This document shows, piece after piece, positions 3,449-13,660 of a DNA stretch of 32,150 nucleotides; position 1 is the stretch's first letter, and each line of letters begins with the position of its first letter. Below the pieces are notes generated by a model, which worked only from the letters and a program-made list of their open reading frames with translations, had not been told where the DNA came from and ran no database searches. Origin of the DNA: a virus. A program made the position numbers and the translations under genes. The stretch lies in UHGV virus genome UHGV-0070112; one strand, 5' to 3'.

Positions 3449-3733
3449 ATGATCGATCATTACTACGTAACTCACGCTCAAATCCTGGCGCTGAGAAACG
3501 TTGTCGCTTTTATCGTGCAAACGATGCCTGAAGAACAAAAAGAAACTGTCCTGCAGGTTTTGAAAAAATTTGCTGAAATAGAATTGATGGATGGTGTCGA
3601 CACGCCGCCTACAAGTGACATCACCCTAAAAACAGTTGAGAAATTAAACAAAGCCTACAAGGCTATCTTCAATGAGATTATTGATCTTTCAACGCCTGGA
3701 CCTGAATCTGGTTCAAAAGGCTACCTGCAATAG
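3449..3733 (+). CDS. Hypothetical protein (moron, plus strand)
   Basis: Start revised to ATG 3449 (MIDHYYVTHAQ...) with GGGTGGTGA RBS. AT-rich by eye. Overlaps the 3' end of minus-strand ORF 3678..3827, so one of the two may be spurious. Confidence 0.35.
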   Translation: MIDHYYVTHAQILALRNVVAFIVQTMPEEQKETVLQVLKKFAEIELMDGVDTPPTSDITLKTVEKLNKAYKAIFNEIIDLSTPGPESGSKGYLQ

Positions 3734-3827
3734 CTCTTGCCTTACTATTCATAGCGGCCAGAACTTGCTTATCTGGCCCTTTCTCAAGTTTGATCAGGCG
3801 AGATTCAATATCGCTTGGCTTAGTCAT
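3678..3827 (-). CDS. Hypothetical 49-aa protein, coupled to o-spanin
   Basis: Manual translation MTKPSDIESRLIKLEKGPDKQVLAAMNSKARAIAGSLLNQIQVQALKDQ. ATG overlaps the o-spanin stop (ATGA) and has an AAGGA RBS. Below the track length cut-off. Confidence 0.35.
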   Translation of the reverse strand: MTKPSDIESRLIKLEKGPDKQVLAAMNSKARAIAGSLLNQIQVQALKDQ

Positions 3828-4054
3828 CGCGTAATCCTTTTGGTTGATTGCGGGCAGTTGGCCAGCACAGATTTGTTATGCGCCAGAATGTCGCGCTTCG
3901 TTTGTCTGTCCAGCGCGTCGATATCGTGATCAGTCAGGTAGATGATCCGCACCCAGTTGCAGGCGGTATCAACCACCACCGGGGCGGGTAAAGTTTTCGC
4001 GCAGCTCCCGATCAACATCGTCATCAGGCATATGGCTAACAGTCTGCTGTACAT
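3824..4054 (-). CDS. Putative o-spanin (Rz1-like lipoprotein)
   Basis: Start taken at internal Met (MYSRLLAICLMTMLIGSCAK...), giving a signal peptide plus lipobox-like IGSC. Overlaps the i-spanin candidate in a different frame, as Rz/Rz1 pairs do. Confidence 0.5.
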   Translation of the reverse strand: MYSRLLAICLMTMLIGSCAKTLPAPVVVDTACNWVRIIYLTDHDIDALDRQTKRDILAHNKSVLANCPQSTKRITR

Positions 4055-6656: not shown

Positions 6657-7242
6657 CGCGCGGCCGCGACGTTAGAACCATGGGTATTTTAACTACATAA
6701 GGTTATGAAGATCTTCGGAAAAAATGAGATGATGGTTTGTTTGGTTATTTAATGAGCGAAAACAGCCAAAATCCCCATGCAGGGATGATAAAAAACGTCA
6801 TTGTGTAGACGACTGCAGGCTGTAATTTATTCAAATTAAATTTCCTTAGTAGGGCTCTATGTGTCCTACAACATCCAACCTACCTAAAGACATTGATTGA
6901 TACAAGAGGAAAAACACTACTTTTTTATCAAATTGGGATCGGTTTTGTTTCCGATGGCGCGGCATTATACGGAGATAACCCAAGTTATCAACAGAAATTG
7001 CCAGCATATGTACGCAAAATGTGCTGTTTCTAATTTTGAGATGGTTGTGGTGCCGGGTGCCTCCCGGTGAGCATGCCCCAACAGACATTACTCGCGCGGT
7101 ATTCACAGGGCTTTCGCTCTATTAGTTGGACGCCCCTCCGCATAGGGGGATTCACCACACGGATAATTTAGGATGTAGTCATAGGCGGCGTCAATAACTG
7201 ACACTCTGTCAAAGGCACCATTACGATGCCTTTTGCACAGTG

Positions 7243-7977: not shown

Positions 7978-8373
7978 TGGTTGATCCGCTTACTGATACG
8001 GAGCGACCAACCTAAGTTGTCGCAGATTCAAATTGTGGCCCTGCCTTTAAGTCACTTTGCGCGCAGCTGGGACATGTAGTTTTCGCATCGTGATCGGGAT
8101 TCGCTTCAGGCGCTGGCCCCGCAGCCATATAAGTGCCGGTTACGGTTCCGGCCAGGCCTCTTCCTCAACGGGTTATTCTCCATACGGATTTCCGTTTGTT
8201 GGTCGTTCCTGCGATCTCAATTTTCCGGTTACGTTTATCCGGTGGCTTACGCCCGGTTTAGCCCTAAGGTAAGGGATTTGGTTGTGGTGGCAGGCGCCCA
8301 TCTCCTGCTTAACGTCAATCAACGCTTGCACATCGCTACGTTATGGGCCGGGATCAACCGATATTTTCGCTCG

Positions 8374-8476
8374 CCACAACGGAAAGAGCACTGGTAATCT
8401 GTAGCGGGTATTTACTCGCGCACGCCGTTTTGACGTGCGGCCCATTTCAGCATGGTCAATGATCTTACCTGTTGTG
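8374..8476 (-). other. Paired-motif element, late-leader copy
   Basis: Minus strand reads CACAACAGGTAAGATCATTG ... ~80 nt ... CCAGTGCTCTTTCCGTTGTGG; the two arms are imperfect reverse complements. A second copy is at 23361-23475 on the plus strand. No credible ORF in 7978-8538. Confidence 0.3.
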
Positions 8477-8538
8477 CGCTCCGTTTCGTGGAGCAGACGC
8501 CGCCGGAATCGCACCGGCAGAATCATCACATTGGTATA

Positions 8539-8570
8539 TGGTGCTGGTTGACGGAATCGAACCGCCGTAG
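8539..8570 (-). tRNA. tRNA 3' segment (T-arm, acceptor 3' strand, CCA)
   Basis: Minus strand ctac-GGCGG-TTCGATT-CCGTC-AACCAGC-A-CCA. Acceptor 3' strand AACCAGC is the exact complement of the 5' strand GCTGGTT at 9037-9043. Begins 1 nt after the HNH stop codon. Confidence 0.45.
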
Positions 8571-8990
8571 CTATTTCGTTATTTCCAATAAACCTGCGTG
8601 GACTTTTCTGTGGCAATTAGCACAGAGGACAATACACTTCCTCACTTCATCTTTAAGTCGATTTCGTGATCTGCCACATAGATTGGAAGGGTCGCCTTCT
8701 TTGCTGCCGGCGTTGTCATGATGAAGATCCAGAACAACAGGTTCTTTTTCTCCGCAATTTTGGCATCCTATGAAGCGTTTATATCGAGCTAGAAACTGAC
8801 GGTTTGAACTTGTTTTTCTCGTTCTCGTTGACTTTATTAGCTGTCGCCTTGACTCATTGGTTGCATAACTCAAAGCATCTCTTTCCTTAGCGCACGCCTT
8901 ACAGATATTTTGTAGGCCATCGCTCTTTCCTTTGTTTTTATGGAAATCGGAAGCAGATTTTAACTCTTTGCATTTGCTACAAATTTTCAT
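8571..8990 (-). CDS. HNH endonuclease with N-terminal Cys-rich motif
   Basis: 139 aa; N-terminal CSKCKELK...CKAC and C-terminal HNH motif (LDLHHDN...CANCHRKVH). AT-rich by eye. AGGA RBS. Lies between the two halves of the tRNA-like gene. Confidence 0.8.
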   Translation of the reverse strand: MKICSKCKELKSASDFHKNKGKSDGLQNICKACAKERDALSYATNESRRQLIKSTRTRKTSSNRQFLARYKRFIGCQNCGEKEPVVLDLHHDNAGSKEGDPSNLCGRSRNRLKDEVRKCIVLCANCHRKVHAGLLEITK

Positions 8991-9005
8991 CAGTATCCTA
9001 GGTCA

Positions 9006-9043
9006 TTACAAGGCAGGCGCTCTACCAGCTGAGCTAAACCAGC
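9006..9043 (-). tRNA. tRNA-Thr(UGU)-like 5' half (acceptor, D-arm, anticodon stem 5' strand and loop)
   Basis: Minus strand GCTGGTT-TA-GCTC-AGCTGGTA-GAGC-G-CCTGC-CTTGTAA with U33 and anticodon UGU. The expected 3' anticodon-stem strand GCAGG is absent; the sequence runs into the HNH RBS. Overlaps the last codons of the N6 methyltransferase. Confidence 0.45.
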
Positions 9044-10083
9044 AAATTGCGCATTTCACTGACCGTCTGTTCAAATCTCTCGGTTTCCAGTTCGACACCT
9101 AGTCCCCTTCGCCCGAGAAGAGCAGCCTGCTTGAGCGTTGAGCCTGATCCAAAAAAGAAATCAGCTACAACATCACCCGGGCGGCTACTCGCTGTGATTA
9201 TCTGCTCCAGCATATCCGCAGGCTTTTCACATGGGTGTTTACCTGGATAAAACTGAACAGGCTTATGAGTCCAGACGTCGGTATATGGCACCGTGACCGA
9301 TACGCTGAATGGTCGCCGTAAACGGTAATATTCCTGCTGGAGTTCAGAATATTTTCGGCTTAACGATTGCCAGGTAGCGACAAGCTGGTGGTGAGGTTTT
9401 CCCAGTTCGTTGCGTGAGTGCTTATCCATGGCGATTTTTTGAAACAAAGCCTGCAACTTTAAATAATCGGCTTCGTTCGGTAGCTGCCACTGACTAAGGC
9501 CAAACCAGTGGGAAACCATATTTTTCTTACCTGTGGCTTCTGCAATCTGAGCGGACGTCACGCCAAGAGATTCCCGTGCATCACGGAAGTAAGAAATTAA
9601 AGGCGTCATGACGTGTTGCTTTAACTCATTACACTTTGCGGCATATCCATCGTCTTTGGGCCTGTATGGCCCCTGATAATGGTCGGCAAAAATGATACGT
9701 TCCGTCGCCGGGAAATATGACCGGAGGCTTTCTTTATTGCATCCGTTCCAGCGTCCCGAAGGTTTAGCCCAGATGATATGGTTGAGCAGGTTAAACCGCT
9801 CTCTCACCAACAGCTCAATATCCGCTGCCAGGCGGTGCCCACAGAACAGATACATGCTGCCGGCAGGTTTTAACACTCGCCAGAACTGTGCCAGACAGCT
9901 ATCCAGCCAACGTAAATAGTCCTCGTCCCCCTTCCATTGGTTATCCCAGCCGTTTGGCTTCACCTTAAAGTAAGGCGGATCGGTAACAATAAGATCAATG
10001 GAGTTATCGGGTAGCGATGGGAGGTATTGCAGGCAATCAGCATTGATTAATTCAATACTGGATGTTTTTACAGTATTTTTCAT
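9034..10083 (-). CDS. DNA N6-adenine methyltransferase, beta class
   Basis: 349 aa; motif IV IVTDPPYF near the N-terminus and motif I FFFGSGSTL near the C-terminus, the beta-class order. No adjacent restriction endonuclease other than the small HNH ORF downstream. Confidence 0.8.
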   Translation of the reverse strand: MKNTVKTSSIELINADCLQYLPSLPDNSIDLIVTDPPYFKVKPNGWDNQWKGDEDYLRWLDSCLAQFWRVLKPAGSMYLFCGHRLAADIELLVRERFNLLNHIIWAKPSGRWNGCNKESLRSYFPATERIIFADHYQGPYRPKDDGYAAKCNELKQHVMTPLISYFRDARESLGVTSAQIAEATGKKNMVSHWFGLSQWQLPNEADYLKLQALFQKIAMDKHSRNELGKPHHQLVATWQSLSRKYSELQQEYYRLRRPFSVSVTVPYTDVWTHKPVQFYPGKHPCEKPADMLEQIITASSRPGDVVADFFFGSGSTLKQAALLGRRGLGVELETERFEQTVSEMRNLLV

Positions 10084-12604: not shown

Positions 12605-13660
12605 TTATGCTTTTACAATGACGCCGATACCCATTACCCGATCCAGAAAACGAGCCCACAGCTCTAACTGAGTGCCATATTTCTTTTCGAACTCTGATGT
12701 ATTGGCGTGTAATTCATCGTGATGCACTCTGCACAGTGGTATCACGAAGAGATCATGGGCCTTGGTGCCAGTTCCCCCCAGACCATTCCCTATTATATGG
12801 TGTGGATCGTCTGATGGTTGCCTACAGCATTCACATGGCTGAGTTTTAACCCAACGTGTGTAAACTTCGCAGGTCCAGCGCCGGCGCTTTGGGCGGCGCA
12901 TAAATGATTCGGGGCTGTTCGGATCGACACTAAGCCTCAGAATGGGTTTACTTTCACTCTGAGTTTGCTCAATGAGTACACTGGCTTCCGCCAGGTCTAT
13001 GCCCTCGACAAGATCCTGAAGGATTTCACCTGCAGCAAATGACGGGACAATATCGCTATCCTTATAAACGGACAGGAAAGGTTCCTCAGGCAGTCTTAAG
13101 GCCTGTTGCGCCATCGTCTCGGTTATTGCGTCAGCAATGCCGGATTTCACAGCCCACCAGCAGAGCTCCGCCATCGATAATTCGCGCTCCTTATTGTATC
13201 CAAGGCTGATCTGCACCCTTTCAATCACCCACTGAACCAGATTCTGATAAGCCAGCTCTGACAACATTTCGGTGGCCTGCTCACGTAATTCATTATCACA
13301 ATGCCAGCAGACAACCATGGCGCCAGGCGGATGCCGCATAGTCACTAATTCATGGTGGTGATAGTGGGAATGCGGGTACTGGCACTCTCTGACATGTCGT
13401 AGAAGCCAGGCCTCAAGAGCGTTTATTCCACCAGCTGCGTTAATAACCCTCTCATCCCTCATGAAAAAACGCAGAATGTCCATTTCGGCAAGCGGCTGAC
13501 GTGCATCGGCGATCCGCCCAGTAGGCAGTGTTTTCATTTTCTCTGGCTGACGCTCTATCAGGACACGGCCGCCGGTAAAGAGAGACATCAATTCGCGGCC
13601 TGGTTTGAAAAGAACAACGCCCAGGCGCGGCACAATTTCCGGAGTAAGCAATGCTCGCAC
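12605..13660 (-). CDS. Phage protein with C-terminal HNH-like Cys/His motif (DUF968-like)
   Basis: 351 aa; C-terminal CECCRQPSDDPHHIIGNGLGGTGTKAHDLFVIPLCRVHHDELH. Family name is from recollection. Confidence 0.5.
   Translation of the reverse strand: MRALLTPEIVPRLGVVLFKPGRELMSLFTGGRVLIERQPEKMKTLPTGRIADARQPLAEMDILRFFMRDERVINAAGGINALEAWLLRHVRECQYPHSHYHHHELVTMRHPPGAMVVCWHCDNELREQATEMLSELAYQNLVQWVIERVQISLGYNKERELSMAELCWWAVKSGIADAITETMAQQALRLPEEPFLSVYKDSDIVPSFAAGEILQDLVEGIDLAEASVLIEQTQSESKPILRLSVDPNSPESFMRRPKRRRWTCEVYTRWVKTQPCECCRQPSDDPHHIIGNGLGGTGTKAHDLFVIPLCRVHHDELHANTSEFEKKYGTQLELWARFLDRVMGIGVIVKA

Follow-up and report, generated by a model that had tools for sequence, protein, structure and literature searches.

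A predicted HNH endonuclease gene, probably of the homing type, interrupts a tRNA-Thr(UGU) gene in lambdoid prophages and P1-like phage-plasmids

The virus genome UHGV-0070112 is represented by a stretch of 32,150 nucleotides (nt), referred to here as the window, which is a Klebsiella-type lambdoid prophage. On its minus strand lies a transfer RNA gene of the tRNA-Thr(UGU) type that is split into two halves by an open reading frame (ORF) for a predicted HNH endonuclease (Table 1). The 5' half (9043-9006) reads GCTGGTT TA GCTC AGCTGGTA GAGC G CCTGC CTTGTAA, with the anticodon TGT at 9010-9008. The 3' half consists of the T-arm GGCGG/TTCGATT/CCGTC (8566-8550), the acceptor strand AACCAGC (8549-8543) and the terminal ACCA (8542-8539). 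An earlier interpretation, made from the letters of this stretch and called here the sequence-only reading, had proposed a tRNA-Thr(UGU)-like gene split around an HNH ORF, and all of the proposed elements were found in their places. It had also held that the HNH gene fills the gap together with its own ribosome-binding site. This is correct, as the insert comprises a leader with a Shine-Dalgarno (SD) sequence, an ORF of 139 codons and four further nucleotides. The size of the insert, in contrast, had been given as 435 bp, a figure that counted the CTAC after the stop codon as tRNA; alignment to the intact allele gives a length of 439 nt. Similarly, the GCAGG strand of the anticodon stem had been described as missing along with the variable loop. 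Positions 39-48 of the tRNA are indeed absent, but GCAGG occurs within the ORF.

The interrupted gene is poorly recognized as a tRNA. With default settings, ARAGORN reported no tRNA genes in the whole window, and the Rfam tRNA model gave a partial match to the 5' half of 18 bits, compared to a threshold of 29. The same model assigns 73-76 bits to intact alleles, and both the window and the copy in P1-like plasmids (see below) fall below its threshold. A 'tRNA-Trp(cca)' called in the window by the intron mode of ARAGORN was rejected as a forced call, an artefact of free intron placement.

Table 1. Coordinates of the split tRNA-Thr gene, its insert and the adjoining features in the window.
Feature	Position	Strand	Basis
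tRNA-Thr(UGU) positions 1-38: acceptor 5' strand, D-arm, anticodon-stem 5' strand CCTGC, loop CTTGTAA	9006..9043	-	direct reading
Entire insert, 439 nt relative to intact alleles; stands in place of tRNA positions 39-48 (GCAGGATGTC, 10 nt)	8567..9005	-	alignment of occupied and empty alleles
Leader of 15 nt, TGACCTAGGATACTG, carrying the SD sequence AGGA (8999-8996; 5 nt 5' of ATG)	8991..9005	-	direct reading
Predicted HNH endonuclease ORF, ATG start, 139 aa, 420 nt	8571..8990	-	ORF list; PHROG 2255
GCAGG within the last nine codons of the ORF (Ala-Gly of ...HRKVHAG...); formal pairing partner of CCTGC 9017-9013	8593..8597	-	direct reading
CTAC, 4-nt 3' junction from stop codon to T-stem	8567..8570	-	reading and lineage alignment
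tRNA-Thr positions 49-76: T-arm, acceptor 3' strand, discriminator A, CCA	8539..8566	-	direct reading
N6/N4 DNA methylase ORF; end and stop within the tRNA 5' end	9034..10083	-	Pfam PF01555, E=1.3e-40
3' flank travelling with the tRNA module	8460..8538	-	97-98% identity to the flank of intact L003 and L110

The protein encoded by the insert matches PHROG 2255, 'HNH endonuclease' of the Felix O1 type, with an E-value of 1.6e-37. A Pfam scan of the protein found no significant family, and the nearest entry in a sequence search of the PDB was McrA (6ghc, E=0.21). Its architecture combines an N-terminal Cys4 zinc finger with an HNH core bearing a CxxC...CxxC zinc site. Specifically, the catalytic His...Asn...His and the flanking zinc site are present as LDLHH(90-91)...CANCH(123-127)RKVH(131), and the residues C4, C7, C30, C33, C76, C79, H91, C123, N125, C126 and H127 are invariant among 37 distinct relatives. 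On the strength of the PHROGs match and the motif, the family is placed among the HNH (beta-beta-alpha-Me) endonucleases as a divergent branch. Among three diverged lineages, the synonymous divergence (dS) is 0.36-0.76 and the ratio of nonsynonymous to synonymous rates (dN/dS) is 0.08-0.10, which points to an ORF under purifying selection, i.e., a functional gene.

Relatives in cultured phages share 64% (Enterobacter phage ENT3), 63% (Pectobacterium phage DU_PP_I), 57% (Felix O1 and its relatives) and 51% (Pseudomonas phage KIL1) identity with the window protein. The 102 related loci, drawn from genomes and viral contigs, include 53 with tRNA genes. In 25 of them, a tRNA on the same strand lies no more than 40 nt from the HNH stop codon, often overlapping it, and seven of these stop-adjacent tRNAs are tRNA-Thr(UGU), including those of the closest array-type relatives (L030 and L032). 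Because tRNAs are so frequent beside the related HNH genes, the normal place of the family is between the intact tRNA genes of phage tRNA arrays. The shared 'TAGCT' at the junction of stop codon and tRNA (window, AAATAGCTAC; L032, TTTAGCTGGGG) was also considered as a trace of an ancestral order of HNH gene then tRNA, and it was dismissed as too short to support anything.

Alignment to the intact tRNA-Thr genes of related phages revealed uninterrupted homologues at the same position. Both halves match one intact tRNA-Thr(UGU) allele and so belong together, as the sequence-only reading had supposed. When compared with the intact allele L110, 37 of 38 positions in the 5' half and all 28 in the 3' half are identical; the lone mismatch is a D-loop base, and the TATACCA of the 3' flank is common to both. 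Klebsiella phage 5 LV-2017 (L003) carries an intact tRNA-Thr(UGU) of 76 nt, GCTGGTTTAGCTCAGTAGGTAGAGCGCCTGCCTTGTAAGCAGGATGTCGGCGGTTCGATTCCGTCAACCAGCACCA, which follows the Q antiterminator gene and precedes the TerB-like ORF and lysis genes that the window also has, and the window halves are identical to it at 36/38 and 28/28 positions. The next 70-83 nt of the 3' flank are 97-98% identical between the window and the intact alleles (97% for Klebsiella phage 5 LV-2017). Agreement of this extent between the tRNA pieces and one intact allele far exceeds chance. Additionally, a scan of IMG/VR with the 5' core of the tRNA found at least 120 loci, and nearly all of those listed hold intact alleles. 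Four of the intact loci (L111, L108, L114 and L179) hold the tRNA between flanks that are 99% and 93% identical to those of L231, an occupied locus from a second context. Presence and absence of the insert at one site in otherwise homologous genomes are seen for L231-233 relative to these four loci and for the window relative to L003 and L110. Overall, empty-site counterparts are known for three of the four occupied alleles.

The same phage tRNA-Thr is also cut off in L159 (~1573-1620), where the gene ends after GTAAGCA and is joined to unrelated sequence and then to lysis genes. L159 was rejected as a further interrupted allele, since it is a truncation by unrelated sequence that has no 3' half. 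It represents another, independent route to the destruction of this tRNA.

The exact HNH protein of the window is recorded in 61 blocks of public assemblies, and the cassette is found in four occupied contexts. The first consists of the window and L230. In the second (L231-233 and L242), the ORF has 0 differences from the window in 420 positions and both junctions are identical, but the tRNA is another allele, with CAGAAGG in place of CAGCTGG in the D-loop and GAACGGC in place of TATACCA in the 3' flank. The surroundings of these L231-type copies are Dam, RusA, DUF968 and Q genes upstream, with Q and not a methylase next to the tRNA, and holin and endolysin genes downstream. The third context, L006, lies in an Enterobacteriaceae chromosome. 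It has a diverged insert, the acceptor strands GCTGATT/AATCAGC and the T-loop TTCAACT, and fits the intact alleles L116, L123 and L181. The fourth, also with a diverged insert, is formed by IncY P1-like phage-plasmids of Escherichia coli, E. fergusonii and Salmonella, and was found in seven of 590 records matching the plasmid backbone. Horizontal spread, seen as the same element in different alleles and lineages, is evident from the identity of the window and L231-type copies and from the L006 and P1-like copies. An exact search of IMG/VR for the 5' junction of the window yielded no matches. A scan of JGI metagenomes for the 3' junction yielded seven, of which two were real (L242 and L244) and five were due to chance, with no new alleles. 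Further split tRNAs, recognized as a T-arm after the stop codon and a complementary 7-mer upstream, were sought in the 102 family loci, and only the enterobacterial lineage was found; the remaining matches were T-arms of intact downstream tRNAs.

The short sequences around the ORF vary among the lineages. Leaders homologous to that of the window are GCAGTGGGATACCG in L001, a copy in a P1-like plasmid, and GTATTGGGATACTC in L006, and apart from GGA they have diverged at approximately the synonymous rate. The 3' junction is CTAC in the window and L001 and CTAT in L006. At the place of tRNA positions 39-42, GCAG is found in L001, GTAT in L006 and TGAC in the window, and this remnant of the 3' strand of the anticodon stem decays.

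In ordinary P1-like plasmids, a tRNA-Asn and then a tRNA-Thr gene follow the Dam gene. In the occupied plasmids, the backbone runs to position ~26 of tRNA-Asn and is followed by the Thr anticodon arm, the HNH gene and the Thr 3' half. Next comes a downstream flank of 85 nt of the lambdoid type, the same 3' flank as in the window, which aligns where these plasmids hold their own tRNA-Thr; P1 sequence resumes at GCACAACAG.TAAG. The cassette has displaced a portion of tRNA-Asn together with the entire resident tRNA-Thr. The resulting 'tRNA' is chimeric, Asn at positions 1-26 and Thr beyond, and its stems are mismatched at 7:66 and 51:63. An origin of the two segments from different tRNA genes, which the sequence-only reading had named as an observation that would speak against it, therefore does not apply to the window but does apply to the plasmid copy, with positions 1-26 from tRNA-Asn and the remainder from tRNA-Thr. 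In NZ_CP046005 and similar P1-like plasmids, RefSeq/PGAP places a 99-nt 'tRNA-Thr' over the 5' half and the start of the HNH ORF (L001 4005-4103), an artefact that arises because the gene is split. The 139-codon HNH ORF itself is left unannotated in the L001-type plasmids.

Based on this evidence, it is very probable that a free-standing HNH homing-endonuclease gene invaded a dispensable phage tRNA-Thr(UGU) gene in the late region between Q and the lysis genes. Disruption of a phage tRNA by a homing-type HNH gene was one of two alternatives in the sequence-only reading, and it is the one favored by the empty sites, the identical insert in another allele and the conserved ORF. The minimal cassette would be the 15-nt leader with its SD sequence, the 420-nt ORF and the 4 nt that follow, inserted in place of tRNA positions 39-48. 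A promoter scan found no sigma-70-like promoter between the methylase and the HNH ORF, and the region upstream of the methylase and positions 7978-7959 hold terminator-like hairpins. Because no promoter-like site precedes it, the HNH gene is probably expressed from the late transcript, from which the protein would be translated by means of its own SD sequence. The protein would then recognize the tRNA-Thr gene in its intact, or empty, state in a phage that resides in or infects the same cell, and would cut it near the anticodon stem, variable loop and T-arm. Repair of the break from the occupied allele, with the tRNA halves of ~38 and 28 nt serving as homology arms, would copy the cassette in, and the occupied allele would be immune because the target is absent. 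The interrupted tRNA is most probably non-functional, a loss that the phage could tolerate because the host supplies tRNA-Thr.

Several observations weigh against this reading. The cutting of DNA by the HNH protein, and the place of the cut, are predictions, and the match to the Pfam HNH model PF01844 (13.9 bits with a cut-off of 21.4, E=0.061) lies below the gathering score. Identical cassettes in two contexts could also be reached by endonuclease-free mosaic recombination of prophages at the conserved tRNA sequence. No intact version of the P1-type allele was found in IMG/VR, although none would be expected if that allele is an Asn/Thr chimera, which would account for its absence. In three of the four contexts the tRNA halves show hardly any decay, which fits a recent invasion and would also fit selection on the halves. 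Finally, exact excision of 9005-8598 leaves a 97-nt sequence that ARAGORN scores as a good tRNA-Thr.

This last observation bears on the other alternative in the sequence-only reading, an unconventional intron-like arrangement. Removal of the 408 nt from 9005 to 8598 would join the exons as ...CTTGTAA/GCAGGTTTATT..., so that CCTGC could pair with the distal GCAGG and a working tRNA-Thr would result, its variable arm 26 nt long. The intron mode of ARAGORN calls such a Thr(tgt), with the intron i(39,407), in L001, L005, L006 and L027-29, and it also calls a cloverleaf in the window. The hypothetical products score 120-128 compared to 121 for an intact allele, two C-to-T changes in the 5' strand of the anticodon stem (L001 and L006) would still allow wobble pairing with GCAGG, and the distal stem has a probability of 0.60-0.67 in folds of the window and L231. 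That probability, however, is 0.00 in L001 and L006, and the cloverleaf arises only with an ad hoc junction that uses the coding GCAGG. These letters are accounted for by a His-Ala-Gly (HAG) motif found throughout the family, which is encoded by the same GCAGGTTTA in L032, outside any tRNA. Simple deletion of the insert yields no tRNA; GCAGGATGTC is absent and the exons are not restored. Moreover, the ORF fills the insert and reaches 27 nt into the supposed 3' exon, and its synonymous sites lack local suppression (lowest-window p=0.80, longest-run p=0.57). Among 4227 Rfam models, none for a group I or group II intron or for another ribozyme matched positions 8300-9300 at E<=10, and in the whole window no intron family reached its gathering threshold. 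What is left of positions 39-42 decays among the lineages, and the product of the P1-type copy would have an Asn acceptor, a Thr anticodon and the two stem mismatches noted above. Neither a protein-only pathway of tRNA splicing nor any other mechanism for making such a product is known in bacteria. With ten exon bases gone, an intron is very unlikely.

Other explanations grant the halves a different role or history. The acceptor stem and T-arm may act as a tRNA mimic through which RNase P and the enzymes of 3' processing release the HNH mRNA from the late transcript, and which closes and stabilizes its ends, a role compatible with homing. The acceptor stem closes a 505-nt RNA with a predicted probability of 0.81-0.96 in all four lineages, and the minimum free energy of the window RNA has a z-score of -2.76. 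Release by tRNA processing is plausible given the stop codons of the family that abut or overlap the next tRNA in arrays, and both the missing promoter and the near intactness of the halves would suit such a scaffold. Closure, however, is predicted trivially when an RNA is cut at exactly complementary ends, the probability of the T-arm is inconsistent (0.08-0.99), the stem of the P1 copy is mismatched, and intactness is explained by recency, the halves matching local intact alleles. The scaffold is thus improbable as an explanation of the locus. A slightly lower probability is given to a split tRNA that is alive in either sense, through novel cleavage and ligation (e.g., by an RtcB-type ligase) into a tRNA-Thr with a long variable arm, the coding GCAGG serving as a strand of its anticodon stem, or through halves that act as an mRNA scaffold; if true, this would be a gene within a tRNA, with both partners functional in the absence of a ribozyme. 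The acceptor pairs GCTGGTT/AACCAGC, GCTGATT/AATCAGC and GATGGTG/AACCATC could instead be attributed to compensatory evolution of a working split tRNA after one ancient, vertically inherited insertion, since double changes at 2:71 and 5:68 maintain base pairing in lineages with HNH genes separated by a dS of 0.36-0.76. These changes were rejected as covariation, since intact alleles carry the same variants, and the pairing is therefore inherited from each recipient gene. The GATGGTG strand is the 5' end of the P1 tRNA-Asn, and identical inserts in different alleles contradict purely vertical descent. This extremely unlikely history is largely refuted already. The probability is negligible that two unrelated tRNA fragments, such as an att-site remnant of an integrase and a pseudogene, merely happen to flank an ordinary HNH gene. 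Duplication of the 3' halves of tRNAs is common at phage att sites, and the tRNA truncated after GTAAGCA in L159 exemplifies an unrelated rearrangement. However, the two pieces agree almost perfectly with one and the same intact allele, the locus shares synteny with the empty-site phages, and it lies in mid-prophage, between Q and the lysis genes, with no integrase nearby. The empty-site alignments refute a juxtaposition of this kind.

The closest relative of the window is Klebsiella phage Kp4866-6, with 95.8% identity over 48%. On the minus strand, the order of genes is the Q antiterminator (12587-12222), cargo, the N6/N4 methylase, the interrupted tRNA-Thr, a TerB-like ORF (7820-7395), holin (5535-5149) and endolysin (4881-4252). 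The 5' end of the tRNA also encodes the last three codons of the methylase, LLV, and its stop (TAG, 9036-9034). In Kp4866-6 (L004 3257-3322), the same methylase, 98% identical and ~12 codons longer, lacks the tRNA module, and the sequence rejoins the window near 8300; therefore, the whole tRNA module is an insertion/deletion polymorphism. A different, unrelated HNH-type ORF (...DHIDGDKLNNRITNLRL...) occupies the same cargo slot between Q and the lysis genes in Kp4866-6 (L004 ~3575-3900), which suggests a hotspot for nuclease genes here. A second HNH-domain protein of the window, also unrelated (12605-13660, minus strand; PHROG 96, DUF968-like, 351 aa), is encoded directly upstream of Q. In addition, the sRNA family STnc100 (RF02076) has a match at 6989-7189 on the minus strand, with 71.6 bits compared to a threshold of 47.

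Two hairpins lie on the 3' side of the tRNA. A T-arm-like hairpin, GCCGG/TGCGATT/CCGGC (8518-8502, minus strand), is found within GCCGGTGCGATTCCGGCGGCGTCTGCTCCA (8486-8530). This segment resembles what is left of a second, decayed tRNA; its place in the alignment is that of the GCCGGTT-type tRNA-Thr of P1-like plasmids, and it is kept beside intact alleles as well. Just 3' of the tRNA module is a conserved long hairpin (~8380-8480, minus strand) with the closing stem CACAACAGGTAAG.../...CTTTCCGTTGTG. Further copies are located in L003 (3090-3164), L001 (3716-3800 and 4563-4654), L002 (3084-3176) and L236 (2257-2352), and RNAalifold of six copies predicted 17 pairs, four of them with compensatory double changes. 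It matched no Rfam family at the gathering threshold. Its neighbours are tRNAs in lambdoid phages as well as in P1-like plasmids, and the 3' crossover of the cassette in P1 lies at this hairpin. It may be a processing hairpin, for RNase III or another enzyme, or an undescribed small RNA.

Homing endonuclease genes (HEGs) normally spare their host, being placed in self-splicing introns, in inteins or between genes. Group I introns, some of which carry HEGs, occur in the anticodon loops of bacterial tRNA genes. The arrangement in the window resembles them in having an intervening sequence in the anticodon-arm region together with a predicted homing endonuclease. In contrast, the window insert has no detectable ribozyme core, exon sequence has been lost and the ORF fills the insert. 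In Aeromonas phage Aeh1, the HEG mobE reportedly splits the protein gene nrdA with neither intron nor intein. HEGs inserted directly into protein-coding genes are also described in Twort and in Pseudomonas phages ZC03 and ZC08 (PMC5418858). As in Aeh1 and ZC03/ZC08, a free-standing HEG in the window would lie in the body of a gene with two gene pieces on its flanks. There, however, the pieces of an essential protein still assemble into an active enzyme, while here a dispensable tRNA has lost 10 nt and probably its function.

Free-standing nuclease genes are also associated with phage tRNA genes in T4. The homing endonuclease SegB, encoded in the tRNA cluster, cuts tRNA genes at the T-psi-C motif GGTTCRANTCC, and its own region is preferentially inherited (PMC2330249). 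SegB also amplifies tRNA loci, by which T4 escapes Septu (PMC13096335). In contrast to the window gene, SegB is a GIY-YIG enzyme encoded between intact tRNAs in the T4/T6 cluster; the window gene encodes an HNH protein whose activity is predicted from sequence, and it lies inside a tRNA and deletes 10 nt. The HNH genes of the Felix O1 type (PHROG 2255; ENT3, DU_PP_I and KIL1) belong to the same protein family, with 51-64% full-length identity and the same Cys4 and HNH architecture. They are close-packed among the tRNA genes of arrays, in many cases immediately 5' of tRNA-Thr(UGU), and their homing role is putative too. These copies are intergenic, flanked on either side by intact tRNAs, in virulent phages with large arrays, whereas the window copy is intragenic, in the lone tRNA of a temperate lambdoid prophage. 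Six HNH genes have been noted in Felix O1 (PMC3185647), and HNH genes occur in the tRNA clusters of mycobacteriophages (PMC6409571). Within the literature searched, no description was found of an intron-less, free-standing HEG inside the body of a tRNA gene.

In conclusion, a member of a family that belongs to tRNA arrays appears to have entered the body of a tRNA in the absence of a splicing element. The allelic contexts of this kind number at least four and are found in temperate phages and P1-like phage-plasmids of the Enterobacteriaceae. It is a tidy and experimentally tractable case that introduces no new principle. The locus also serves as a warning for annotation, since PGAP labels part of the split gene as tRNA-Thr and misses the HNH gene in P1-like plasmids. 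The matched empty and occupied alleles provide a natural system for identifying the DNA target of an uncharacterised HNH family, and they would exemplify homing in which the tRNA itself provides homology arms no longer than ~30-40 nt. Phage tRNA repertoires matter for escape from tRNA-cleaving defences, and invasion by such genes would be a route both for the erosion of these repertoires and for the creation of tRNA chimeras.

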